IMG/VR virus record: IMGVR_UViG_2671180275_000010
Origin: a virus
Taxonomy: Duplodnaviria > Heunggongvirae > Uroviricota > Caudoviricetes
Length of the DNA: 42,548 nucleotides
Direction: 5' to 3' (one strand)
In this document: one piece after another, positions 1 to 20,483 of the stretch
Layout: each line of letters starts with the position of its first letter
Numbering within the stretch: the stretch's first letter is position 1
Made by a program: the position numbers and the translations under genes
Notes under the pieces: model-generated
Seen by the model: only the letters and a program-made list of their open reading frames with translations
Databases searched by the model: none
Told to the model about the DNA's origin: nothing

Positions 1-1287
1 TCAGAGTCTGGCTCTATGGGGCATGTATGGGACACTCTCTGTCAACTGCTTATTGAGTAGTTCTATTTGCCCGATATTGTTATCTTCCATCCATGCACCG
101 TAAACGTTGAATACCATTTGTGCATTTGCATGGCCCATTTGGTTTGCTATGAAGCTTGGATTCGCTCCTGCCGATAATGCCCAGCAGGCATAAGTATGCC
201 TGGACTGATAGGCTTTTCTGTGCCGCAGTCCTGCTCGCCTTAATGCAGATGCCCAGGAATCTCTGATGGAATCTGCTTTATAGTGGTGGCCGACGTGCTG
301 GCATTTTTTCACCAGTTGCGGATTAAAAACAAACGTGCATTCATGGCTTGTGCTGCGTCCGAACTCCCGCAGTTTGACATCAATTTGATATTGCTGGTCA
401 AACCTTGTCATTTCAGCCTGGCTTTTCAGGGCATCAACAGCTGGTTGAACAAGATGAATAACACGATCAGTTCCCGCCTCTGTTTTTGGTAGAGTGAACT
501 CCCCGAGTTTTGTATAATTACGACGGATAGTCATTGTTTTAGCTTTTAAATCAATATCCTCCCAGGCGAGAGCTATTAGCTCACCGTGACGAATGCCTGT
601 GTATACTGCTAAGGACCACAGGTTTTTCGTTTGTTGATGGTGACAGGCATCAATAAAGCGAATAAATTCGTCACGCGTGAGCGGATCTGGCTCTGTTCTG
701 GATCTCTTTAATGGTGTCAGCCCGTTAAATGGGTTTGACACGATATAGCCGTTATCAGCCGCAAATTGAAACATTCCTGCAATTGTCGTCATGTAGTAAT
801 TAACCGTAACTACTGACCTTCCTTTAATCGGCGTTGTTTTTCCGTTAGAGAGATTATGATACCCGGTTAACAAGTCTTTCCTGATAAACAGTAAATCTTC
901 CTTTGTTACCGACGAAGCAAGACGTTTTTCCCCTATGCGAGGAAGCATGTTTCTCACCACGGATTGATACCGACTGAATGCATTACTTCCTATCTCAATT
1001 TTCTTAAGGTCCAGCCATTTTTCCGAAAGTGCCTTAACGGTTATCTCTCTTTTTCCCAGACCAAAGTGTTTCAGGTTAGGGGAATTAGGGAACTGCGCGG
1101 CGTAGTCGAAACTCCCCATTCTGATTGCAAAACAAACGGAAGTGCGAAGTTCACCAGCGATCTTCCGGTTTTTGGCTGTGTCAGGAACACCGAGGTTTTC
1201 TCTGACACGTTTGCCATTATAGTGAAACCATATACGGAGTGATCCTCCATGGTTTTCAACGCCTGTCGGGTATGATGCGTTACTCAT
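1..1287 (-). CDS. int: Tyrosine-type site-specific integrase (lambda Int family); stop codon lies at window positions 1-3, so the att site is outside the window
   Basis: 428-aa ORF with a phage-integrase-like C-terminal catalytic region (conserved Arg/His/Tyr-containing segments); sits at the prophage end immediately upstream of an excisionase-like gene. Confidence 0.9.
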   Translation of the reverse strand: MSNASYPTGVENHGGSLRIWFHYNGKRVRENLGVPDTAKNRKIAGELRTSVCFAIRMGSFDYAAQFPNSPNLKHFGLGKREITVKALSEKWLDLKKIEIGSNAFSRYQSVVRNMLPRIGEKRLASSVTKEDLLFIRKDLLTGYHNLSNGKTTPIKGRSVVTVNYYMTTIAGMFQFAADNGYIVSNPFNGLTPLKRSRTEPDPLTRDEFIRFIDACHHQQTKNLWSLAVYTGIRHGELIALAWEDIDLKAKTMTIRRNYTKLGEFTLPKTEAGTDRVIHLVQPAVDALKSQAEMTRFDQQYQIDVKLREFGRSTSHECTFVFNPQLVKKCQHVGHHYKADSIRDSWASALRRAGLRHRKAYQSRHTYACWALSAGANPSFIANQMGHANAQMVFNVYGAWMEDNNIGQIELLNKQLTESVPYMPHRARL

Positions 1288-1320: not shown

Positions 1321-1575
1321 TTAACCGGAACTTGCATTTTTGGCACCTGGTTGTTTCTGGTTTTCGATCCATCGCATAATTTCTTCGATGTTGTACAGGC
1401 ATTCACTGTAGTGCCCCGGATCACCTTCTACAGCGTAATGGCGGTATTCTTTTCCCTGCATCCATGACTTTCTTCTTGCCCGCTCAATGGTGCCAGGCTT
1501 TAGCCCTGTTGATGCAATGAGGACTCTCTCCGTACACCATTTGCTGGGGGTTATCTGATAGATGATTGTCTGCAT
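1321..1575 (-). CDS. xis: Excisionase-like small DNA-binding protein
   Basis: 84-aa ORF directly upstream of int on the same strand; central segment (KPGTIERARRKSWMQGKEYRHYAV) resembles the lambda Xis winged-helix region (RRWVRECRIFPPPVKDGREYLFHESAV). Confidence 0.6.
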   Translation of the reverse strand: MQTIIYQITPSKWCTERVLIASTGLKPGTIERARRKSWMQGKEYRHYAVEGDPGHYSECLYNIEEIMRWIENQKQPGAKNASSG

Positions 1576-2058: not shown

Positions 2059-3003
2059 TCATTGATTCACCTCCTGCCTGTCGTCCGGCATTCGCTCACT
2101 ACAGCTTATCCAACCATCCGGAGTTACCGGAACTTGTGGAATGGCTGTCTGCTCTCGAACGTCATTAGGCGCTATAGGTTCTGCTGCCAACTGACTGGCA
2201 TATTTGTTAATGGTAACGATAAGCTCTTGCTCAGCCTCATCCAGACAATCACCGATACCTCGCCTGTCACCGTCAAAATCATCGAAATCGGCACGAATCC
2301 TGGCAACCTTCAGGATTGCGGACAACACCTCACTAGGAATTGCCGGATAGTTGGTTGACGTTTCCGCGATTTCCCGAAAATTATTGGTTGACGAATTCTT
2401 GTTTTCCCGAAAGTTTCCGGACTGAAGCATGGCGGCGCGGCAGGCGTTCCATATTTCGGCAGCAATATCGCGCTCGCTATCGGTTAATTTGTACGTTGAA
2501 ACATAGCCAGAGAGCATTTCTACGTTTTCCGGAGTTGCTTCTTCAGGCACTACCGGTGCTGGCTCACGTATTACAGGCTCGCCCATGCGTGATTCTCCCT
2601 GCGCCTCTTTCACCATGTGGTCATTGATTTGCTCCAGTCGCCGAACGTGCTCATCAGCTTCAAGCGCTCGCCGTTTCCAGATGGACAGGTCTTCACGAGC
2701 GCCCTGATATGCGTCACCGTATTCGCCGTTAAATACTGGCGCTGGCGGGGCGATGCGTCCAAGCAACTTATTTACCTCTTTCGCCATCGCGTCATATTTA
2801 TCTAAATAGCGATTAGCTTCTAAGCAGACTCGGTGCATCTGATCTGAGTTAACTCGTTTAACTGGATCTGCTTCCAATGATGCCAGTGCAATCCGTGCCA
2901 GTTCTTCCGCTTCTTCTGCTGGCAGTACAACGTTGCTACCCGGTCCGTATGTTTCGCGCCACTGCTTGATTGTCAGCAGTCGCCCTTTGGTAATAGTGAT
3001 CAT
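2059..3003 (-). CDS. Hypothetical phage protein, acidic with coiled-coil segments (possibly Ea22-like family)
   Basis: 314-aa ORF; its start overlaps the stop of the upstream gene in an ATGA arrangement (translational coupling); family assignment is from memory of prophage Ea22-like proteins only. Confidence 0.45.
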   Translation of the reverse strand: MITITKGRLLTIKQWRETYGPGSNVVLPAEEAEELARIALASLEADPVKRVNSDQMHRVCLEANRYLDKYDAMAKEVNKLLGRIAPPAPVFNGEYGDAYQGAREDLSIWKRRALEADEHVRRLEQINDHMVKEAQGESRMGEPVIREPAPVVPEEATPENVEMLSGYVSTYKLTDSERDIAAEIWNACRAAMLQSGNFRENKNSSTNNFREIAETSTNYPAIPSEVLSAILKVARIRADFDDFDGDRRGIGDCLDEAEQELIVTINKYASQLAAEPIAPNDVREQTAIPQVPVTPDGWISCSERMPDDRQEVNQ

Positions 3004-3515
3004 GCCGCGTTTCCTTCTTTCTTATTAACAATCACACCGTCATATATTTCATTAAGGTGCCCTCTCAACTCCATGCGCCTTAATGCAGATAACATGTAAT
3101 CGCATTCAACCTGCTTATTCCCGGTAAATGGCTTATCGTCAGGATTACCCCAACAGCAATTACCCCTGGGCCATCCATGTACTTTCCGTACTCTTCCGTT
3201 AACAACGTGAAGTAATCCCCAGCCGGGAGGTAAATCCTCAACTGAAATAATTTCCGGCTCACTAATAAAGAATCGCCAGTCGCCCATGCCAAGTGAGGGA
3301 TTTTTACGGAAACGCTTTTTTCTATCTGCCAACAAGTCAGCACGAGAACACTTCGCCTCTATCAGGCATGATGCTGAATTTCTGAATCCCATAGCATCTG
3401 GCTGTTCTCCGGTACTGGTTACAGCAACAAAGCGGTCATGAAAGCAAACCTTGAACCCGTTGCGCTTAAGGAACTTGTACGCAATCTGACAGAGTTCGTG
3501 GTGTGTTAACGCCAT
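3000..3515 (-). CDS. Putative PD-(D/E)xK nuclease-fold protein (MmcB-like)
   Basis: 171-aa ORF with AAGGAGA Shine-Dalgarno; contains ...QPDAMGFRNSASCLIEAKCS..., i.e. a PD...(D/E)xK-like spacing. Confidence 0.45.
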   Translation of the reverse strand: MALTHHELCQIAYKFLKRNGFKVCFHDRFVAVTSTGEQPDAMGFRNSASCLIEAKCSRADLLADRKKRFRKNPSLGMGDWRFFISEPEIISVEDLPPGWGLLHVVNGRVRKVHGWPRGNCCWGNPDDKPFTGNKQVECDYMLSALRRMELRGHLNEIYDGVIVNKKEGNAA

Positions 3516-3516
3516 A

Positions 3517-4089
3517 TCACTCTCCTTTGATGCGAATGTCAGCGACGCGTAATGCGTGTTCTAGGTCAATCAGGTAAAGCCAACTGCCATTTTCTTTAGG
3601 TATCATGACTTGTCGCTCATCTGCATTTATCGGGTGTCCATATCGAAGGTCGTAGCGAGTCGGTAATTGAACTTCCCGCGCTTCCAGTTCAGCAATACGC
3701 TTGCACCCATCAGAGATAACTCCCTCGTAATACTCGCGCTGCTCGTTGAGTTTTGATTTTGCTGCTTCAAGCTCAACGCGCAGCTTCCCAACCGTAAGCG
3801 CAATATCCTCGTTCTCCTGGTCACGGCGTTTGATGTATTGCTGGTTTCTTTCCCGTTCATCCAGCAGCGCCTGCACTACTTCAGGGTTGAAAGCTGCGAT
3901 ATAACGAGCGTTGTTCTCTGCGTTGTTCTGTCCATCAAAGCCGGTCCATTTGATAACGTCTTCACATCGTTTATCACCAGGTGTATGCACCGCATATGTA
4001 CCAGTACCAGACGAAATAAATGCGACCCATTCACCCTGTGTTGCCAGTTGCGCCGCTTTACGCAGTGCCTGATAGTCAATCTTGCTCAC
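3517..4089 (-). CDS. Ead/Ea22-like family protein (start moved to in-frame GTG preceded by AAGGAGG)
   Basis: Track ORF 3517..4125; GTG at 4089 has a strong SD and overlaps the stop of the upstream 79-aa gene (GTGA); N-terminal ...IDYQALRKAAQLATQGEWVAF... resembles the conserved N-terminus of prophage Ea22-like proteins; coiled-coil C-terminus. Confidence 0.5.
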   Translation of the reverse strand: MSKIDYQALRKAAQLATQGEWVAFISSGTGTYAVHTPGDKRCEDVIKWTGFDGQNNAENNARYIAAFNPEVVQALLDERERNQQYIKRRDQENEDIALTVGKLRVELEAAKSKLNEQREYYEGVISDGCKRIAELEAREVQLPTRYDLRYGHPINADERQVMIPKENGSWLYLIDLEHALRVADIRIKGE

Positions 4090-4325
4090 TGGTTGCCTCC
4101 TTTGCGGATCTGCGCTGCGATGCACGAAAAAAAAGACTCCCGCGTATGACTGTTAAGAGCTGGCGCGAACGCTGCGTTAAGAACGGCAGCATCACAGCCG
4201 TCATCGATATAGAGCGCAATTTTTTTCTCCAGGCGCGCTTTGGCTTCCTGCAACTGCATACCCCGGCACGCACGCGGGATATAATCAGCAATTTGAGCGA
4301 TAGCTTTTTCGTTCTGTTTAAACAT
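4086..4325 (-). CDS. Hypothetical small protein
   Basis: 79-aa ORF, stop overlaps downstream GTG start, start overlaps stop of upstream ORF; operon-style packing. Confidence 0.4.
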   Translation of the reverse strand: MFKQNEKAIAQIADYIPRACRGMQLQEAKARLEKKIALYIDDGCDAAVLNAAFAPALNSHTRESFFSCIAAQIRKGGNQ

Positions 4326-4521
4326 GCTTCACCTCGATAGGCTTGATGGTGTCTAACAGCAGTCGGCGGCACGTATTTTCTGCAAAGTGGCGGCGTCCAG
4401 TTTCTTTGTGGTAAAACTCGTTTTTGCCGACGACCCACATCCGTTCTGTTTGGTGCAATTTTTTTACCTGCGGTCCATCTTTGGTGATCACGGTACCGGT
4501 ATGGGTTTTTACGATTGTCAT
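4318..4521 (-). CDS. Hypothetical small protein
   Basis: 67-aa ORF; ATGA overlap with the stop of the PAPS-reductase-like gene. Confidence 0.4.
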   Translation of the reverse strand: MTIVKTHTGTVITKDGPQVKKLHQTERMWVVGKNEFYHKETGRRHFAENTCRRLLLDTIKPIEVKHV

Positions 4522-5396
4522 GCCACTACCTCTTCGAATTTCAACTCCAATTGGTCACCCCAGATTTCACATGATTCGGAACACGAACCAGTATCAAACC
4601 GCTTGGCCAGCACCATCGCCTGATACAAACTTCTGTAGTCGCTGTCGGCATACATTCTGGCAATCCTGTCAAGCGTCAGGTGACCACGGTACATAACGTC
4701 TTTACCTGTTCTGCGATGACCATCCCGGACGTGTTTGCCTGTAACCAGTTCATTAAAAACCCGCATCAGACCAGGTTCGTCTTTACATGCGATCCCCAGC
4801 TTTTGCGTTGACTTTTTGATGCAGAAAACACAGTTCCCGAGGTGCTCCGGGATTTGCAAATCAAAAGGTTGTTTACGCCACCACCGGATAACATCCGACT
4901 TATCAAAATCTGACAGCTCGGCAAGATACCGGACGCCCGGTTTCGGTTTCAGCCTACGGTGTTCGTCCGCACGAATACCCAGCCATGTGATGTAATTCCC
5001 TCGCCCAAAATGGTCATCGCAATATTTCGTGAAAGGGGTGAGTTTTAGCCTGTCAGTACAGAATGCGCCGCCGATGTATGGCGTACCGTACTTTTTAACC
5101 ATGTCCATAAACGGTTTAAGCACCGGCATTCGCGTCTGAATATCCTTTGGTTCCCATTCCGTATAACCATTTGGCTGCCCAAGCTCTGGATTTATATCGA
5201 CCTGCAACACAGTTAGCGGTATGCCCCAGAACTTCACAACCTCCCGAATAAAGCGGTATGTCAGCGGATGTTCGCAACCGGTATCCATAAAGATGTAGCA
5301 GACGTTATTGCCAGCCTTTCTTTGTTCTTCCATCAGGTGAACAAGATATGCAGATGTTCTCCCGCCAGAAAAACTAACTACATGAGTTATGCACAT
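4518..5396 (-). CDS. PAPS reductase-like PP-loop ATP-pyrophosphatase family protein (adenine nucleotide alpha-hydrolase superfamily)
   Basis: 292-aa ORF; N-terminal PP-loop VVSFSGGRTSAY followed by ...CYIFMDTGCEHP..., typical of the CysH/PAPS-reductase family; function in phages unknown. Confidence 0.75.
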   Translation of the reverse strand: MCITHVVSFSGGRTSAYLVHLMEEQRKAGNNVCYIFMDTGCEHPLTYRFIREVVKFWGIPLTVLQVDINPELGQPNGYTEWEPKDIQTRMPVLKPFMDMVKKYGTPYIGGAFCTDRLKLTPFTKYCDDHFGRGNYITWLGIRADEHRRLKPKPGVRYLAELSDFDKSDVIRWWRKQPFDLQIPEHLGNCVFCIKKSTQKLGIACKDEPGLMRVFNELVTGKHVRDGHRRTGKDVMYRGHLTLDRIARMYADSDYRSLYQAMVLAKRFDTGSCSESCEIWGDQLELKFEEVVA

Positions 5397-5923
5397 TTGC
5401 GTAATTCCGATAACTCGTTGAAGCGTTCCATAAACATCCCGTAGGCATGGCCCGGTGCCAGTGGAATCACTTTGAACATCTCTGTTGCCGGGATACCTTC
5501 CAATACAGGCCAGAAAGAGCCATCATCAAGTCCGAGATCGCGGCGTTCGGTTGCCAGCATGATGAGATCGGCATATTTCACTGGCGTGCTCATAACAGGA
5601 GGTAACCCGTATTTCTCACGGATTACGGCGTCTATTTTTTCTTCCATCCGTTTATAGTCAGGAAGAAGTCGTTTCAGTGGTGCGGGGATGTCCTGGCAAT
5701 ACGCTTCTGTTGCATCATGCATTAACGCTTCAAAAGCAAATTCCTGCGGCACCAGCTGGCTGCAAAGCACCGCATGCTGGGCGACACTGTAGAAGTGTGA
5801 AAGATGTCCTGCAAAGCGACAGATATTTGAAAGGGAAACCGCGATATCGTTAATCACGATGTCGTCTTTATTTATCTTGTCATAATAAAAATGCTTCCCG
5901 GAAAAAGTTTTAATAAATGACAT
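5387..5923 (-). CDS. HD-domain 5'-deoxynucleotidase (YfbR/YfdR-like)
   Basis: Start placed at internal ATG (Met22 of track ORF 5387..5986) preceded by GGAGA; 178 aa; H...HD motifs (SVAQHAV, LMHDATEA) and KYADLIMLATE block align with E. coli YfbR; length matches CPS-53 prophage YfdR as I recall it. Confidence 0.75.
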   Translation of the reverse strand: MSFIKTFSGKHFYYDKINKDDIVINDIAVSLSNICRFAGHLSHFYSVAQHAVLCSQLVPQEFAFEALMHDATEAYCQDIPAPLKRLLPDYKRMEEKIDAVIREKYGLPPVMSTPVKYADLIMLATERRDLGLDDGSFWPVLEGIPATEMFKVIPLAPGHAYGMFMERFNELSELRKCA

Positions 5924-6051
5924 TTCGTTCTCCACTTTATATGCGCTGCACCGCGCTGAATTCGGGTAAAAGGAATCCCGCACCATCCGGCGATTATTGA
6001 GTTAATTACGTTTCCATAAATGCCCCCGCAGGAGCATTTGCAGTAATGAAA

Positions 6052-6876
6052 TCAGGCGGTGAAAGTACCAATAAAGGTTTCTACTTTGCTGTCTTTGAAT
6101 TTCTCAACAAGCAGATCACGAAATTCGTTAGCCATTTCTTCCTGCACTGCTTCCAGCTGAATAATGCGCAGAACCAGTACAGGACGATCGCCAGTGATAA
6201 TGCTGAGGCGTAATTTAAATGGACGTTCTTTCAGACCTTCAAACGGAACGCATTTAAATTCAAATGCCACTGGCATAATATCTTTGGTCTTCGCTTCGAC
6301 AGACTCCATCAGGGAGCGTTTGCCGCTGAAGTCATTATCTTCAAAATCAGCGGTCTGGTTTGCTTCAATCGTGATTTTACGGACCGCCGCAGCCGCTTTT
6401 GTTGCCTGAATAGCGTCACCATTAGCATCAAAGCCCACAAGGTAGTCGGACCAGTCTTCAATCCATTCTGCCAGTGACTTCTGGGAGTTACGCTCGCCGT
6501 TAACAGACAACAGGGCAGAGAACGGTGCTGTCTTTTTCAGTTTGAGAGTGGCGGTGTTATCTGCGTGACCTGGTTCATCAATAGTACCCAGGTTAAGCAC
6601 ACTGACTGCTCGCATATTATCGGCATCGATAAATCAGCGGGTGCCTTCATCTGCAAGATCTTTAGAATAACGGGTAAAGTCATCGATGCTGGCAGTGGAA
6701 AGCGCACCACGGAAACGGAAGCGATTTAAATTAAATTTTTCCAGATCATGAATGCGGAAATTCTCAGGCAATGCCACAGCATCGGCACCAATCTTACTGA
6801 TAATTTCATTAACACCCTGAGCAGAAATAAGGGAATGAATTTGATTAATTGCGGTTGCGTCTAAGTTCTGAGACAT
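6052..6876 (-). pseudogene. yfdQ-like (DUF2303-type) gene interrupted by a single in-frame stop codon (track ORFs 6634..6876 and 6052..6615 share one frame)
   Basis: 80-aa and 187-aa ORFs are in the same frame, separated by one stop (read as TGA at 6634-6636) plus 6 sense codons; combined 274 codons equals the length I recall for E. coli CPS-53 YfdQ. Confidence 0.45.
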
Positions 6877-6941
6877 AATAAGTCCTCACTATATAAAGAT
6901 ATTCAGTGATGAGATAAATAATCGGTTAATTAAGAACGATA

Positions 6942-7304
6942 TTAATGACCTGCTGCGCGGAGTTTTCCGTCAGGTTCACCGGCAAGAGTCAGTAATTGTC
7001 CCTGGTCTTCCTGCAGAATAGTCAGGCGACCACCGCGATTGACATACATCGGCGTTTCGGTGGTGTCTTCTTCGGAAATTTTCCCGCGGTTAGTCGGGCG
7101 AACATATGAGAGTTTGTGTTTGATTTTCACACGGTTCTCATCAAACGGTTCGATTTCCAGGTTGAGCGAGACCTTACCTTTGGTTTTCGTGTTCATCACA
7201 CCGGAAGCGACTTCACTGAGAACAGCTCCGATTTTGGTTTCAAATACGCCGCCGTCCAGCTCCCCGATAAATGCCTGCACATCAGTACTACGTTCGCTAG
7301 CCAT
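6942..7304 (-). CDS. Hypothetical protein, first gene of leftward operon (YfdP-like by size and synteny)
   Basis: Start set at Met63 of track ORF (ATG 7302-7304) preceded by GAGGAG SD; 120 aa. Confidence 0.5.
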   Translation of the reverse strand: MASERSTDVQAFIGELDGGVFETKIGAVLSEVASGVMNTKTKGKVSLNLEIEPFDENRVKIKHKLSYVRPTNRGKISEEDTTETPMYVNRGGRLTILQEDQGQLLTLAGEPDGKLRAAGH

Positions 7305-7436
7305 TTTGCTGCTCCTCATCATATCGACCCTGCAAGGTCGGTTGGTTTCCCCACAAAACAGAGAAGAACACCTGCGGTGGCAGCCGCCCGGATGGATTGG
7401 GTTATGAGCCCGTCGTCCGGTGATGCTCTTCTCTGT

Positions 7437-7487
7437 TTTGTAAAAAGAGCGGTACCAGCCGGAAGCAAGTGTACAAACTGGTACCGC
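7437..7487 (-). terminator. Intrinsic terminator-like hairpin on the leftward transcript (10-bp stem GCGGTACCAG/CTGGTACCGC followed by U-tract), upstream of first left-operon gene
   Basis: Perfect 10-bp inverted repeat with about 19-nt loop followed on the minus strand by TCTTTTTA; a second 14-bp long-range inverted repeat (about 7354-7367 / 7427-7440) flanks it. Confidence 0.45.
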
Positions 7488-7932
7488 CAAAGCAGTGGCT
7501 GTTGTGGTGACCGGTGCTGATCTCCGGCTTGCGGTTATTTCAGACTCTCACGGGCGTTTAATTGCCCCGCCGAACAGCTCTTTTCCGCAATAGCTGCAAT
7601 GTCTTTCGCGCATCAGCCTGCGCCTTCACCACAACACTGAGAGCACTTAGCCAGTTACGGCACCACACTTTGTCGCGGTTCCATAAATGCCCTCATCGTT
7701 GCACCCTGGTCTCTTCCCAGGCGTCAAACCGAATCGCCACGCTGGTTAGGCGTCTTATCAGCATCATCATTGACTTGCACATTCCGGCTACCTGGTTTGT
7801 TTGCCCGAGCAAGGAGTGGATTGTCTCCTTTAACGTCCCCAGACCGCTAACGACGCATGTGCCATACGCCGTGTTACAACCAAATTTTGTTAGTACCTTG
7901 TTTGTTGGTCTGGAAAGAAAGATAAAATGAAG

Positions 7933-7971
7933 TTGCGCATTATGCAAGTATTTTTGTTGCGAGATATGCAA
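7933..7971. promoter_or_regulatory. OL-like operators: two TTGC-N7-GCAA sites (TTGCGCATTATGCAA, TTGCGAGATATGCAA) with a putative leftward promoter
   Basis: Same TTGC-N7-GCAA half-site pattern as the sites between cI and cro; located just beyond the cI terminator. Confidence 0.4.
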
Positions 7972-7980
7972 TTTGATGAG

Positions 7981-8005
7981 TAATGAAAAGCCACCTTCGG
8001 GTGGC
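7981..8005 (-). terminator. Intrinsic terminator downstream of cI
   Basis: GCCACC-TTCG-GGTGGC hairpin followed on the minus strand by TTTTCATT, about 20 nt after the cI stop. Confidence 0.6.
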
Positions 8006-8026
8006 TAATTGATGAGGAGGTAAGGG

Positions 8027-8719
8027 TTAATTGTGTCGCTTAAGGGTTTGTGACTGGCTGATTAAGACCTTTCCAAAGACCATAAACCGGTGTTCATTTT
8101 CGCTGGTAATTCCCCATTCACGGTAAATCTGGTTATCAGAAATTACCAGTAGTTTGTCAGGTATCATTTGCAGTCGTTTGACATAAATTTTATCATCAAA
8201 ACCAAACACATAGATACCATCCCCATCAAACTGATTGATACTGATATCAACGAAGATGAGATCTCCTGGCTCAATGGTTGGACACATACTGTCCCCACGA
8301 ACGTTGATAACTTTAATGTGATTTGCTGGTCGTCCACCAAACATCGATACAGCATTATCAGTTCTGTATTCAATGGCATGAATCACATCAATGACATCAC
8401 CGCCCTGGATAAGGCCATTTCCCGCACTGGCACTGACATCCAGCATTTCAATACGGAATACATCCTTCACCTGCGCAACATCCTCACTAATACTGTTTTT
8501 ACATACAGTATTACTTTTGAGGTCTGAGGTAAAGAGATCAGCAATATCAACACCTAAGCTCCTGGCAATATTACTCAGGGCTTGTTCAGTGAATTGTTTC
8601 TGCTTACCTGTTTCGAGGCGCGAGATATTCGCCGCATCCACTCCTATTGCTTCAGCGAGATCGGCGATTTTCATGTTCTTCGCCTGGCGAAGTTGTCTGA
8701 CTCGATTTCCTATGTTCAT
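8027..8719 (-). CDS. cI: CI-like prophage repressor (HTH_XRE N-terminal domain + S24 LexA-like autopeptidase domain)
   Basis: 230 aa; HTH (IADLAEAIGVDAANISRLETG); Ala-Gly cleavage site (SASAGNG); S24 catalytic Ser in GDSMCPTI and Lys in VKRL; divergent from cro. Confidence 0.9.
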   Translation of the reverse strand: MNIGNRVRQLRQAKNMKIADLAEAIGVDAANISRLETGKQKQFTEQALSNIARSLGVDIADLFTSDLKSNTVCKNSISEDVAQVKDVFRIEMLDVSASAGNGLIQGGDVIDVIHAIEYRTDNAVSMFGGRPANHIKVINVRGDSMCPTIEPGDLIFVDISINQFDGDGIYVFGFDDKIYVKRLQMIPDKLLVISDNQIYREWGITSENEHRFMVFGKVLISQSQTLKRHN

Positions 8720-8816
8720 GCGTTTATTACATTTCTTTATTGCGCGTTAAGCAAATCAACTTGCGCAAAATATTTGCGTGAAATAATATGCTCATCACGC
8801 AATATGTGGAGGTTAT
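8720..8816. promoter_or_regulatory. Divergent immunity promoter/operator region (OR with PR and PRM analogues)
   Basis: Three operator-like sites with TTGC/GCAA half-sites (TTGCGCGTTAAGCAA at about 8740-8754, CGCAAAATATTTGCG, ATGCTCATCACGCAA); putative PR -35 TTGCGC / -10 TAATAT; GGAGG SD before cro. Confidence 0.6.
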
Positions 8817-9077
8817 ATGCAATCACCATTACGGAATGTGCGTAAGGCGCACGGATTTACTTTGCAGCATGTTGCTGCGGGCGTTCAGGTCAATCCAGCG
8901 ACGCTGAGTCGTATTGAAAGACTGGAACAAATTCCATCTATCGATCTTGCAGAACGTCTGGCCAATTTTTTTAAGGGTGAAATCAGCGAAATGCAGATTC
9001 TTTATCCGGCACGTTTTCAATCTAGCCAAAACCAGAATGGGTTTAAACCACAGGAACAGGAGGTAAGCCGTGGGTAA
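8817..9077 (+). CDS. cro: Cro-like HTH regulator
   Basis: 86-aa ORF divergent from cI with HTH (FTLQHVAAGVQVNPATLSRIE). Confidence 0.7.
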   Translation: MQSPLRNVRKAHGFTLQHVAAGVQVNPATLSRIERLEQIPSIDLAERLANFFKGEISEMQILYPARFQSSQNQNGFKPQEQEVSRG

Positions 9078-12272: not shown

Positions 12273-12763
12273 TCATGAGTCTGATGAACGATGTACAGAA
12301 ATTCATTGAAGCCCATCCGGGGTGTACTTCAGGTGACATTGCGGATGCTTTTGCTGGTTACTCACGACAGTGCGTTCTGCAGTCAGCAAGCAAGTTACGT
12401 CAGAGTGGCCGTGTGGCTCACTGTTGTGAAGGGAAAACACGCAGACATTTCCCACACCAGGCTGAGATATCGCAGGAGGAGAAACTGCAACCTGTTCTTG
12501 AAACCATACCTGTGCGCAATTTCTATGTCGGCACTAACGATCCCCGGGTGATTTTGTGCCTGACCCGCCAGGCGGAAGAACTGGAGTCCAGGGGCTTATA
12601 CCGTCGTGCTGCAACCGTGTGGATGGCGGCATTCCGTGAAAGCCACTCCCAGCCAGAACGAAACAATTTTCTGGCGCGTCGTGAGCGGTGCTTACGGAAA
12701 AGCAGAAAGCGCGCTGTAGCGGGTGATGAGTGGTATCTGTCAGGGAATTACGTGGGGGCTTAA
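12269..12763 (+). CDS. Hypothetical replication-module protein
   Basis: 164-aa ORF, coupled between the replication initiator and the methylase. Confidence 0.4.
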   Translation: MIMSLMNDVQKFIEAHPGCTSGDIADAFAGYSRQCVLQSASKLRQSGRVAHCCEGKTRRHFPHQAEISQEEKLQPVLETIPVRNFYVGTNDPRVILCLTRQAEELESRGLYRRAATVWMAAFRESHSQPERNNFLARRERCLRKSRKRAVAGDEWYLSGNYVGA

Positions 12764-13416
12764 TGAGTAATAAATATTGCCAGGCGCTGGTGGAACTACG
12801 GAACAAACCAGCCCATGAACTGAAGGAAGTGGGCGATCAGTGGCGCACGCCGGACAACATTTTCTGGGGAATTAACACCCTGTTTGGCCCGTTTGTTCTG
12901 GATCTGTTTACTGACGGTGATAACGCCAAATGTGCCGCGTATTACACGGCGGAAGACAACGCGCTGGCACATGACTGGTCAGAACGTCTTGCGGAGCTTA
13001 AAGGTGCTGCCTTTGGTAATCCCCCGTACAGCCGCGCCAGTCAGCATGAGGGACAATACATCACCGGCATGCGTTACATCATGAAGCATGCCAGTGCCAT
13101 GCGTGATAAAGGCGGGCGCTATGTTTTCCTGATCAAAGCGGCCACCAGCGAAGTGTGGTGGCCGGAAGATGCAGATCATATTGCTTTTATTCGCGGGCGT
13201 ATTGGTTTTGAACTGCCAGCCTGGTTTATCCCGAAAGACGAAAAGCAGGTGCCAACAGGTGCTTTCTTCGCTGGTGCTATTGCTGTTTTCGACAAGACCT
13301 GGAAGGGAGCGGCAATCAGCTACATCGGGCGCGATGAACTTGAGGCATGTGGTGAGGCATTTCTGGCGCAGGCTCGCCAGCAGGCGGAAAAACTGGTCAG
13401 GGAGATGGCGGCATGA
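12763..13416 (+). CDS. Phage Dam-family N6-adenine DNA methyltransferase (orphan)
   Basis: Start at Met12 of the track ORF (ATG overlapping the upstream stop); motifs DLFTDGDN and catalytic FGNPPYS (NPPY); no adjacent restriction endonuclease. Confidence 0.8.
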   Translation: MSNKYCQALVELRNKPAHELKEVGDQWRTPDNIFWGINTLFGPFVLDLFTDGDNAKCAAYYTAEDNALAHDWSERLAELKGAAFGNPPYSRASQHEGQYITGMRYIMKHASAMRDKGGRYVFLIKAATSEVWWPEDADHIAFIRGRIGFELPAWFIPKDEKQVPTGAFFAGAIAVFDKTWKGAAISYIGRDELEACGEAFLAQARQQAEKLVREMAA

Positions 13417-16639: not shown

Positions 16640-16656
16640 TTTTGTGGAGAAAGTTG

Positions 16657-17049
16657 ATGCGTGATATTCAGATGGTTCTCGAACGCTGGGGGGCATGGGC
16701 GGCAAGTGGTAACGCCGGGGTGGACTATTCTCCGATAGCTGCTGGATTTAAAGGCCTTTTACCATCCACCGCTAAACCTCGCCCGGCCTGCAGCGATGAT
16801 GACGGCCTTATCATCGAAAACTGCCTTACGCGCCTGAAGAAGAAAAAACCGGACGAGTATTCGCTGCTGGTAGCTCATTATCTGCTGCGCATATCAAAAA
16901 GGCAGATTGCCAGAACAAGAAAGAAGAGCGAAAAGGCAATACGAATTGAGATGCAGATTGCTGAAGGATTTATTGACGGATGTCTGTCGATGCTGGGTGT
17001 AAGGCTGGAGATGGACGACTGGCTGCCCAAAAAAGTAAAAAATGATTAG
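16657..17049 (+). CDS. Q: Late-gene antiterminator Q (QuuD/phage-82-type)
   Basis: MRDIQMVLERWGAWAA... N-terminus matches E. coli DLP12 QuuD as I recall it; located directly upstream of the late-regulatory region; track ORF starts at alternative codon 16642. Confidence 0.8.
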   Translation: MRDIQMVLERWGAWAASGNAGVDYSPIAAGFKGLLPSTAKPRPACSDDDGLIIENCLTRLKKKKPDEYSLLVAHYLLRISKRQIARTRKKSEKAIRIEMQIAEGFIDGCLSMLGVRLEMDDWLPKKVKND

Positions 17050-18503: not shown

Positions 18504-20483
18504 ATGACATTTAAACACTACGATGTGGTCAGGGCGGCGTCGCCGTCAGACCTTGCGGAGCGACTGACTCAAAAACTGAAGGAGGGGTGGCAGCCATTTG
18601 GCAGCCCGGTGGCCATCACGCCTTATACCCTGATGCAGGCCATTGCGGCGGAAGGTGATGTCACCACACCTGTGGTGGTGAAGCCGTCGGATGGAGAAGG
18701 CACAGTTATCAGCACCACCAGCGAACCGGAGTATTACTTTGTTGTTGTTCTGGCGGGGCAGTCAAACTCAATGTCTTTTGGTGAAGGGCTGCCGCTGCCG
18801 GAGACATATGACCGTCCGGACCCGCGTATTAAACAGCTGGCGCGTCGCAGTACGGTGACGCCGGGTGGTGCCGCCTGTAAATATAACGACATCATTCCGG
18901 CAGACCACTGTCTGCATGATGTGCAGGATATGAGTAACCTGAATCATCCTCATGCAGACCTGAGTAAGGGACAGTACGGTTGTGTGGGGCATGCTCTGCA
19001 TGTTGCCAAAAAGCTGCTGCCGTTTATGCCTGCGAATGCGGGTATCCTTCTTGTTCCATGTGGCCGTGGCGATTCGGGATTTACTGCGGGAGTCGAGGGG
19101 GCGTTTAACGAAGCGTCGGGAGCGACCGCAGGCTCGTCCCTGTGGGGGGCGGATAAACCGCTGTATCATGACCTGGTCAGCAGAACCCGTGCGGCCCTGA
19201 AGAAAAATCCGAAGAACGTGCTGTTATCAGTGATTTGGATGCAGGGAGAAAAAGATGTCAGTTCGGGGAGACATGCAGAACACAATGCGCTTTTCCTTGC
19301 CATGGTAAATCAGTTCCGTACGGAACTGGCAGATGTGGCAGAGCAGTGTACTGGCGGGACAACGGCCAGCGTCCCGTGGATTTGCGGTGATACCACGTAC
19401 TACTGGAAGGAAAGGTATGCAGCGCCGTATGAGGCGGTTTACGGTGGGTATAAAGGCAAAGCTGCGCAGAATATTCACTTTGTGCCGTTGATGACGGATG
19501 AGCATGGTGTGAATGTGCCGACAAACGAGCCGTCAGAAGATCCGGACATTATCCCGGCGGGATACTATGGCGCTGCGTCACGCACTGCCAGTAACTGGAC
19601 GTCAGCCGATCGTAAAACGCACTTCAGTTCATGGGCGCGAAGAGGCCTTGTTTCAGACCGCCTGGCAGGTGCCATTTTGCAGTACGCCGGGCGGACATTA
19701 TCGTTCCTTACCGGGCAGAGCGCATCGCTGTCGGGTGGTACAACTCCTGTCAGTCCGGGGACACCGGATGTTGAGAAACCGCAGGATGGCGGTGTTGCTG
19801 GTACTGGTCATGATGAGGCCGTGAGCAGTACCAGGACGGTGGCTGAATATGATGCGAACAGTGGAAATGGTGTATGGACAGAGCAGCAGTGGGGGGCTGC
19901 CGGTGGCAAAGGCACTGTGACTGATGACGGTGGACGGAAAGCGCTGCGACTGGAAAAACAGCCCGGTAAACTGACGTCCTGGAAAATGTTCCGTACTGTT
20001 GCAGTGGAGGAGGCAAAAAATCTTCTCAGCAAGGGGGGTGAAATTGCCGTACGGTTCAAAATTCCGGATGGAAGCGAACTGGTGAACGGACAGTTTGTCT
20101 TTGGTCTCTACTGGCCGGTGTCGCAGTGGGCGTCAGGCGCGGCAGCAAACAGTATGCTGGCATCATTCTTCCTTCAGACGGATGCATCAAATCTGAATCT
20201 TATGCACCACAAGGGCACGTCGAATGCACAACTGGGTACATTTGGTGCGTTTGACCATAACTGGCATACGGTTGTTTTCCGCTTTGCGGGAAATAACAGC
20301 GAAAGAGTCGTTCCGGTGATTGATGGTACAGAGCAGACGGCGTTTGACCTTGTGATGTGGACAAATGATGGCTTTACAGCAGATACGCTGACGCTGACAG
20401 ATATCACGGGGGCAAAAGCGACGTATCCTGTCCTGCTTGATACGGTCACAGTCAAAGTTAACGAAAGCCGGGCATCATCATAA
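18504..20483 (+). CDS. nanS-p: NanS-p-type phage sialate O-acetylesterase (DUF1737 N-terminal domain + SGNH/SASA esterase domain + C-terminal carbohydrate-binding-like region)
   Basis: 659 aa; N-terminal MTFKHYDVVRAASPSDLAERLTQKLKEGWQPFGSPVA (DUF1737-like); esterase block YYFVVVLAGQSNSMSFGEG; GGGAGG SD; occupies the Q-to-lysis moron position as in EHEC Stx prophages. Confidence 0.85.
   Translation: MTFKHYDVVRAASPSDLAERLTQKLKEGWQPFGSPVAITPYTLMQAIAAEGDVTTPVVVKPSDGEGTVISTTSEPEYYFVVVLAGQSNSMSFGEGLPLPETYDRPDPRIKQLARRSTVTPGGAACKYNDIIPADHCLHDVQDMSNLNHPHADLSKGQYGCVGHALHVAKKLLPFMPANAGILLVPCGRGDSGFTAGVEGAFNEASGATAGSSLWGADKPLYHDLVSRTRAALKKNPKNVLLSVIWMQGEKDVSSGRHAEHNALFLAMVNQFRTELADVAEQCTGGTTASVPWICGDTTYYWKERYAAPYEAVYGGYKGKAAQNIHFVPLMTDEHGVNVPTNEPSEDPDIIPAGYYGAASRTASNWTSADRKTHFSSWARRGLVSDRLAGAILQYAGRTLSFLTGQSASLSGGTTPVSPGTPDVEKPQDGGVAGTGHDEAVSSTRTVAEYDANSGNGVWTEQQWGAAGGKGTVTDDGGRKALRLEKQPGKLTSWKMFRTVAVEEAKNLLSKGGEIAVRFKIPDGSELVNGQFVFGLYWPVSQWASGAAANSMLASFFLQTDASNLNLMHHKGTSNAQLGTFGAFDHNWHTVVFRFAGNNSERVVPVIDGTEQTAFDLVMWTNDGFTADTLTLTDITGAKATYPVLLDTVTVKVNESRASS

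Follow-up and report, generated by a model that had tools for sequence, protein, structure and literature searches.

The question raised by this locus is whether two overlapping genes of a prophage form a functional unit or are merely neighbours. The window (the whole stretch of DNA analysed, 42,548 nucleotides, IMG/VR virus record IMGVR_UViG_2671180275_000010) is, as judged from its landmark genes, a lambdoid E. coli prophage. A sequence-only reading had placed at positions 4518-5923 a PP-loop ATP pyrophosphatase resembling PAPS reductases and an HD-domain deoxynucleoside monophosphate phosphohydrolase, adjacent and overlapping, and had taken them for a pairing conserved in phages. Both open reading frames (ORFs) were found there, on the minus strand and sharing 10 nucleotides (nt):

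4518-5396, minus strand: NinC-family PP-loop ATP pyrophosphatase, 292 residues, annotated as 'PAPS reductase family protein'
5387-5923, minus strand: yfdR, HD-domain phosphohydrolase, 178 residues, RefSeq WP_000008174.1, '5'-deoxynucleotidase'
5387-5396, minus strand: the 10-nt overlap (ATGTGCATAA) between the yfdR stop and the first codons of the cassette downstream; also the mosaic breakpoint

The longest ORF in the yfdR frame is 5387-5986. The supported start is the ATG at 5923, because it is preceded by a GGAG Shine-Dalgarno sequence and because the same 178-residue protein is annotated in RefSeq and in K-12. Both genes are intact, real and under strong purifying selection, with ratios of nonsynonymous to synonymous substitution rates (dN/dS) of 0.09 for the PP-loop gene (compared with the allele of a Shiga toxin (Stx) phage) and 0.03 for yfdR (compared with K-12 and mEp460). 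In a scan of 3900-8900 no promoter-like and no convincing terminator-like site was found between them. From the evidence described below we infer that NinC and YfdR are, with high probability, functionally independent; their adjacency goes back to cassette exchange.

DNA alignments located the two ends of the junction precisely. Homology to phage mEp460 (97.8%) spans 7600 down to 5389, in the yfdR stop codon, and returns only at 4511, and homology to the Stx phage Lys12581Vzw (92.4%) spans 4052-5398, ending 2 nt upstream of the NinC ATG. The Lys12581Vzw segment homologous to the window consists of the NinC gene and the sequence following it; the gene upstream of it in that phage, gp54, shows no similarity to YfdR. 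The breakpoints at 5389 and 5398 therefore mark the arrangement in the window as recombinant, with the crossover in the 10-nt overlap. K-12, mEp460 and the SfV-type phages have yfdS (120 residues) directly behind yfdR and no PAPS-reductase homologue in that place, and the K-12 yfdR and yfdS genes overlap in the same manner. Among 78 YfdR loci of IMG/VR five alternative cassettes occupied the position after yfdR, all starting from the same overlapped ATG: YfdS-like at 49 loci, NinC-like at 17, and three further types at 9, 2 and 1. Because YfdS and the three other cassettes use this same ATG, the overlap, and with it the translational coupling, belongs to the slot after yfdR and not to the pair. 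Four of the five cassettes begin with the same ~35 residues (MRMNVFEMEGFL..GKCVPRDLKVNET.AEYLVRKF) and then diverge completely, the NinC cassette alone being without this leader. A common leader followed by divergence suggests recombination within the cassette gene in addition to that at its edge.

The distribution of the junction points in the same direction. In a set of 5426 complete E. coli genomes, with the NinC allele counted at ≥80% coverage, the yfdR side of the junction was present in 2968 genomes, the NinC allele in 423 and the yfdR-NinC junction in 283, which means that NinC follows yfdR in 9.5% of the yfdR-bearing genomes. Outside E. coli, in species-representative genomes, a YfdR homologue lay within 6 kb of just one of ~52-69 NinC loci and was not adjacent to it, and in IMG/VR none of 13 lambda-type NinC loci had YfdR as neighbour. 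Counted from the other gene, 16 of 77 YfdR loci of IMG/VR had the junction. Phage lambda has NinC without YfdR; K-12, mEp460 and the SfV-type phages have YfdR without NinC. The claim of a conserved pairing in phages did not hold up: NinC and yfdR are commonly paired in one prophage lineage, the pairing is facultative for both genes, and it is rare elsewhere. We also considered whether other phages carry a hidden HD or YfdR analogue beside NinC, and rejected this, since neither gp54 of the Stx phage nor p0019, the neighbour of a Vibrio phage homologue of NinC (see below), shows similarity to YfdR.

That the genes belong to the NinC family and to YfdR, respectively, is hardly open to doubt. The PP-loop protein of the window is 78% identical to bacteriophage lambda NinC over residues 2-292, that is, over its full length (tblastn against phage genomes), a membership that had escaped the sequence-only reading. 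Stx2a-converting phages, Shigella phage Ss-VASD and phage Lys12581Vzw have a gene without a name whose product is 94-95% identical to it (tblastn). Full-length matches were obtained with phrog_424 (E 7.6e-93) and phrog_33262 (E 3.7e-89), and Pfam PAPS_reduct covers only the N-terminal 70 residues (E 4.7e-9). A search of 5.8 billion proteins yielded 5028 relatives; in an exhaustive profile search the family comprised 362 clusters (50% identity) at E ≤ 1e-30 and 1370 at E ≤ 1e-10. Lambda NinC (290 residues), the product of a non-essential accessory gene of lambdoid phages, has the same length, PP-loop and six cysteines as the window protein. Lambda ninC, however, is flanked by ninB and ninD in the rightward nin region, whereas the window allele follows yfdR and is part of the leftward early operon. 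The ninB-ninC-ninD position, which is typical of the family but does not define it, is thus not that of the window gene, and the nin-equivalent region of the window (PerC-Dam-LexA-like-RusA) contains no second NinC copy. In Stx2a-type phages the same NinC allele occupies a similar early-left position without yfdR.

Large plasmids of E. coli (93-102 kb), possibly phage-plasmids, also carry the same NinC-like allele (~94% identity; 74 places on plasmids), with no yfdR annotated beside it. A lambda-type ninC is located in a prophage of E. coli B7A (NZ_CP035812.1 2621733-2622224), the model strain for DndBCDE-FGH. Identical lambda ninC regions occurred in assemblies labelled Pseudomonas, Oceanobacillus, Neobacillus, Shewanella, Bradyrhizobium, Kitasatospora, Segatella and others. 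The contigs bearing them measured ~48.4-48.5 kb in several cases and 20-36 kb in the rest, and the regions are almost certainly contamination of public assemblies with lambda control DNA.

The NinC-like protein has the SGGxxS/T P-loop and the Rossmann-like alpha/beta/alpha fold that define the PP-loop ATP pyrophosphatase superfamily, and its loop, SFSGGRTS, bears out the PP-loop assignment made from the sequence alone. In an alignment of 23 family members spanning 50-95% identity, the PP-loop S8-x-S10-G-G-R-x-S15 (ATP type), D38-T-G and R142-x-D144-E145 were invariant in all 23, and so were six cysteines: C113, C126, C189-x-x-C192 and C272-x-x-x-C276. The AlphaFold model (predicted local distance difference test score 83.5) is confident except for the C-terminal tail bearing the CxxxC. 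The fold of the protein matches structures 8cnz, 6scy and 5mko; no solved structure of a close NinC relative was found. A PDB match named 'PptA' (21fy) was not significant (E 0.61) and was dropped; a literature search gave nothing relevant.

Comparison with profile hidden Markov models (HMMs) of defence families put SspD first (E 1.8e-15, 55 bits, profile positions 2-121 of 277), ahead of BrxP and DndC, whose matches were marginal (E ~1e-3 to 1e-4); the SspD score was also higher than that of PAPS_reduct. The PADLOC DndC profile (E 7.7e-4, 16.5 bits) matched the N-terminal 140 residues only, not the full length expected of a DndC. SspD, DndC and BrxP serve as PP-loop ATP pyrophosphatases in DNA phosphorothioation; NinC has in common with them the superfamily and the ATP-type PP-loop, and is also cysteine-rich. 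In contrast, only its N-terminal half aligns with these proteins, and NinC is phage-borne and either stand-alone or fused to a methyltransferase. Its gene is not part of a dnd or ssp operon: the neighbours are yfdR, a 67-residue ORF and an ea22-like gene, neither an ABC ATPase nor DndE was seen among the left-operon genes scanned, no ssp partner genes adjoin it, and no SspA/B/C or DndA/D/E partners were noticed near it.

In adenosine 5'-phosphosulfate (APS) reductase the iron-sulfur (Fe-S) ligands lie in a CC...CxxC motif and the catalytic cysteine on a mobile tail, and in TtuA, NcsA and LarE three cysteines hold a [4Fe-4S] cluster carrying the sulfur for transfer. By analogy, the C113/C189xxC192 set of NinC, together with a mobile CxxxC tail, would fit an adenylating sulfurtransferase. 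NinC would probably bind Fe-S.

In species-representative genomes and IMG/VR, the partners with which NinC is recurrently associated are DNA methyltransferases, not nucleotide phosphohydrolases. In Mixta tenebrionis a single ORF of 1099 residues encodes a C5 methyltransferase, NinC and a D12 adenine methyltransferase (Pfam). A 1031-residue fusion in Sodalis sp. RH21, known from similarity rather than from a Pfam scan, has a similar layout, its N-terminal part being 52% identical to the C5 methyltransferase region of the Mixta protein. Both look like polyvalent prophage DNA-modification proteins. Fusions of NinC with Dam (PF05869) were found in an Erwiniaceae locus (confirmed by Pfam), in Vibrio and in metagenomic proteins, as well as in Providencia (two loci, by tblastn similarity to the Dam of the window). 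The reverse order, Dam followed by NinC, was seen in two further cluster representatives and NinC with D12 (PF02086) in another; the C5 partner is PF00145. Eight representatives with a length of 450 residues or more were scanned; six are adenine-methyltransferase fusions, and an HD domain was present in none of the eight. Where NinC is not fused, it often adjoins a methyltransferase. Salmonella phage Oslo has the order ninB-Dam-ninC-ninD with overlapping stops and starts, and NinC relatives of ~30% identity in Alphaproteobacteria and Phycisphaeraceae contigs adjoin a C5 and an MT-A70 methyltransferase. A methyltransferase was fused or located within 1.5 kb in 15 of 52 non-lambda species loci, a figure obtained with a limited query set and without a baseline for nin regions. 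Because this adjacency has no such control, the independent fusions are the stronger argument. Altogether four methyltransferase families occur as fusion partners or neighbours of NinC domains, and ParB is also among the partners.

One of the Dam fusions belongs to a two-gene cassette with a known phenotype. Protein p0018 of Vibrio phage 44E38.1 (479 residues, 'Dam methyltransferase with PAPS reductase domain') is 55% identical to the window protein over 283 residues (96% of the query). The genes p0018 and p0019 were the only ones specific to the Vibrio phages overcoming a Dnd system, and a sensitive phage that had received both could infect a host with Dnd (bioRxiv 10.1101/2021.05.05.442762; Piel et al. 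2022); the two are cited as anti-Dnd in PMC13551039. The Vibrio and window proteins have in common the PP-loop, the CxxC and the C-terminal SCSESCE. They differ in that p0018 carries a C-terminal Dam, whereas the Dam of the window is a separate gene ~7.4 kb away on the other strand. The Vibrio gene is situated in a nin-like region after O/P-like replication genes, and its neighbour p0019, which follows an O-like initiator, is unrelated to YfdR and gave only a marginal helicase-loader match (E 0.0066). The sequence comparisons thus join lambda NinC, the window allele and the Vibrio anti-Dnd protein in one family with a fixed PP-loop and six-cysteine signature. JSS1_004, a known anti-Dnd factor, was examined as a further PAPS-reductase homologue and rejected, because it is a T7 gp0.7-type kinase.

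The second gene of the pair is a YfdR. Its product is 98.9% identical to YfdR of the K-12 prophage CPS-53 (176 of 178 residues), matches phrog_318 (E 1.8e-111) and has the motif residues H50, H69-D70-x-x-E73, D78 and D119, of which the HD tetrad H50/H69-D70/D119 aligns with that of Atu1052 (PDB 2gz4, E 1.9e-13). The assignment to YfbR/YfdR-like enzymes therefore stands for its YfdR half. The HD fold is common to YfdR and YfbR, the housekeeping 5'-deoxynucleotidase, but YfdR scored below the curated thresholds for the YfbR type both in Pfam (PF12917, 24.0 against 25.9 bits) and in NCBIfam (NF003009, 19.6 against 122 bits). Its HDxxE...D motif resembles what we take to be that of YfbR. K-12 YfdR binds DnaA directly, in a manner dependent on Phe46 of DnaA domain I (Noguchi & Katayama, PMC4776307), and multicopy yfdQ and yfdR together with yfdS or yfdT inhibit initiation at oriC (PMC4776307). 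As cited in that paper, YfdR's affinities for nucleotides lie far below those of YfbR. By analogy with these K-12 data, the phage role of YfdR is most likely modulation of host replication.

Both genes belong to the leftward early operon, where they follow yfdP and yfdQ and lie between a cI-like repressor gene and xis/int, so that the accessory early-left location proposed earlier is correct. The other features of this side of the window, and the unlinked Dam gene, are as follows:

1-1287, minus strand: int
1321-1575, minus strand: xis
4318-4521, minus strand: 67-residue ORF of unknown function (phrog_1226), sharing ATGA with the NinC-like stop
6052-6876, minus strand: yfdQ (DUF2303), broken by a nonsense codon, 98.2% identical to K-12 YfdQ
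6945-7304, minus strand: yfdP, 120 residues, 99.2% identical to K-12 YfdP
8027-8719, minus strand: cI-like S24 repressor
12763-13416, plus strand: Dam DNA N6-adenine methyltransferase (PF05869), unlinked, Pfam Dam E 6.4e-45

The phrog_1226 ORF is found 3' of both NinC and YfdS-type cassettes, and an ea22-like gene is among the remaining left-operon neighbours. The locus had been likened to the yfdP-yfdQ-yfdR-yfdS block of K-12, and the comparison is right for the first three genes, which precede the junction as in CPS-53. It fails for the fourth: downstream of yfdR K-12 has yfdS and yfdT, whereas the window has the NinC cassette in the yfdS slot. In yfdQ a TGC codon has become TGA (6634-6636, codon 81), giving ORFs of 80 and 187 residues, each matching one half of DUF2303; the gene is intact in K-12 and in E. 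coli STEC2018-607, with whose allele the codons were compared. K-12 YfdS and YfdT had no match in the window. Because of the nonsense codon in yfdQ and the absence of yfdS and yfdT, the replication-inhibition module of K-12 type is incomplete here.

The explanation that we consider best, and on balance probable, is that the locus holds two independent accessory genes, one for a counter-defence enzyme (NinC) and one for a modulator of host replication (YfdR). Cassette exchange set the NinC gene beside yfdR in the leftward early operon of a lambdoid prophage. NinC would adenylate an oxygen on DNA and transfer sulfur, or otherwise disturb phosphorothioate self/non-self marking, and would act alongside phage DNA methyltransferases against, for example, Dnd/Ssp-type immunity. 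YfdR, whose HD site is retained, would modulate host DnaA and replication during early lytic development. That NinC is a DNA-directed counter-defence enzyme using ATP-dependent adenylation and Fe-S/cysteine sulfur chemistry is a proposal that we regard as evenly poised; its cluster, its chemistry, its DNA substrate and its anti-defence role are all things we infer. Among the roles suggested by the sequence-only reading, DNA modification or interference with defence has gained ground for the PP-loop protein through the methyltransferase fusions and the resemblance to the Vibrio anti-Dnd protein. In contrast, no evidence ties the HD enzyme to PP-loop chemistry, the documented property of YfdR being DnaA binding and oriC inhibition.

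Several observations weigh against parts of this explanation. The E. coli genomes with the NinC allele have yfdR beside it in 283 of 423 cases, with allele identities of 94-100%, and YfdR is adjacent in 46 of 64 close NinC-like IMG/VR loci; there may be a lineage-specific interplay of NinC and YfdR within E. coli. The DnaA-inhibition phenotype needed YfdQ and either YfdS or YfdT, and the window has a broken yfdQ and neither of the other two genes. Concerning NinC, the Vibrio transfer moved two genes, one of them with the PAPS domain fused to Dam, so that the share of the PAPS domain itself was not isolated (bioRxiv 10.1101/2021.05.05.442762). Three Dnd systems restricted lambda, which bears NinC, 3- to 60-fold (efficiency of plating 0.016-0.3; PMC10470545), so that lambda NinC can be no more than a partial anti-Dnd factor. 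In the searchable literature no NinC protein has a reported biochemical activity. The ORFs scanned in the window, which were not searched systematically for DndD/E or SspB/C, gave no sign of such partners, and for a stand-alone NinC there is no evident route to the writing of a sequence-specific mark.

Among the alternatives, the one that survives best, although we consider it improbable, is that NinC leaves phage DNA unmodified and imitates DndC/SspD as a decoy, non-catalytic or competitive, poisoning or hijacking host phosphorothioation complexes by sequestering, for example, IscS, DndD/E or SspB/C. This would agree with the homology of NinC to SspD and DndC over its N-terminal half, with its stand-alone state (no partner genes were noticed among the ORFs scanned) and with the anti-Dnd phenotype of a homologue. 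However, the invariance of the PP-loop, RxDE and six cysteines at 50-95% identity, together with the dN/dS of 0.09, argues for catalysis, and blocking the writing of phosphorothioates by the host would by itself leave the incoming, unmodified phage DNA open to DndFGH.

Somewhat less credible is a two-enzyme pathway, built around a modified nucleotide that the PP-loop enzyme would synthesize or consume, with the HD enzyme removing the canonical or by-product nucleotide, by analogy with PurZ/DatZ of the 2-aminoadenine phages. The coupling of the genes through the 10-nt overlap, the frequent junction among NinC-bearing E. coli genomes across alleles of 94-100% identity, purifying selection on both genes and the presumably YfbR-like HDxxE...D motif of YfdR could all be read in this way. 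Against it, the overlapped ATG serves YfdS and three other cassettes as well and the breakpoints fall exactly at the junction. NinC occurs in only a small minority of yfdR-bearing E. coli genomes, and the single YfdR neighbourhood in other species is not an adjacency. No HD neighbour accompanies lambda NinC, the anti-Dnd protein of the Vibrio phage or the allele of the Stx phage, and the fusion partners identified in the representatives examined are all DNA methyltransferases and never HD proteins. A functional pair would have been the more novel result, but the evidence says that the two genes are not a pathway.

An action of NinC on RNA seems equally doubtful. Thiolation or base modification of tRNA, as by TtuA, NcsA or TilS, could tune translation or evade tRNA-targeting defences. 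NinC, however, lacks RNA-binding domains (for example THUMP, PUA or a TilS C-terminal domain), its fusion and neighbour partners are four families of DNA methyltransferase and ParB, and the one genetic phenotype described among homologues concerns escape from a system that targets DNA.

The weakest alternative, that the PP-loop protein is a CysH-type PAPS/APS reductase serving as an auxiliary metabolic gene that boosts host sulfate assimilation during infection, can practically be dismissed: the protein scored 20.3 bits against the cut-off of 154 for the NCBIfam CysH equivalog (NF002537 / PRK02090), aligns with reductases only over ~65-160 N-terminal residues, is matched with a higher score by the SspD HMM than by PAPS_reduct, has the canonical ATP-type SGGxxS loop rather than the CysH variant, and belongs to a family fused to DNA methyltransferases and set among DNA-transaction genes. 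CysH has its C-terminal catalytic cysteine in an ECGLH motif. This motif is absent from the NinC-like protein, which ends in DTGSCSESCEIWGDQLELKFEEVVA with the tail SCSESCE, and its C-terminal 110 residues are unrelated to the assimilatory APS reductase (PDB 2goy). CysH orthology without a phenotype and loss of the catalytic motifs had been named as grounds for abandoning the original proposal; the protein failed the CysH cut-off, and the PP-loop and HD residues are retained in the respective proteins. For NinC the label of a cysH auxiliary metabolic gene, which inflates estimates of viral sulfur metabolism, is hereby corrected.

A bolder version of the counter-defence reading can be put forward as a speculation, unlikely as it stands. 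NinC proteins could be stand-alone, single-polypeptide DNA sulfur-modification enzymes (phosphorothioate or thio-base), often joined to methyltransferases, that forge or overwrite the host 'self' mark against Dnd, Ssp or type 4 BREX-like immunity, recruited in this E. coli prophage lineage as a cassette behind the DnaA-binding YfdR. If this were true, the pL operon would deliver host-replication arrest and DNA camouflage together, and should NinC write a sulfur mark unaided, DNA phosphorothioation would gain a compact tool.

Lambda NinC has been in the genome sequence since 1982. The NinC and YfdR families are known, and the exact proteins already appear with generic names in RefSeq and in published genomes of Stx phages. 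Mechanistic work on NinC function was not found in the searchable literature, which says only that phage "PAPS reductases" merit investigation (PMC11437467, PMC13551039). Nor did we find there any mention of the early-left 'PAPS reductase' in prophages of E. coli and the Stx type as an allele of NinC in the yfdS slot, of the link between lambda NinC, the window allele and the Vibrio anti-Dnd protein as a single family, or of the breadth of the methyltransferase fusions. With these connections the question of NinC function becomes directly testable in E. coli, using lambda genetics and cloned Dnd/Ssp systems.

The plus strand of the window carries cro/cII-like genes, Rha, PerC, Dam, RusA, KilA-N, Q and a NanS-p-like esterase, followed by the structural genes. 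The Dam gene (12763-13416) is placed between the gene of the PerC-like activator and a gene with a LexA DNA-binding domain, and its product is 99.5% identical to the annotated 'phage N-6-adenine-methyltransferase' of E. coli STEC2018-607. A 171-residue ORF at 3000-3515 (minus strand; phrog_9263 / phrog_631) has no Pfam match; it contains a D...E-A-K stretch (PDAMGF...CLIEAKCS) that, by eye only, resembles the PD-(D/E)xK nuclease motif. At 18504-20483 (plus strand) lies the gene of a 659-residue protein of NanS-p type, composed of DUF1737, a SASA sialate O-acetylesterase domain and DUF6645. It is located 3' of the Q antiterminator gene (16642-17049), a position typical of the late regions of Stx phages.

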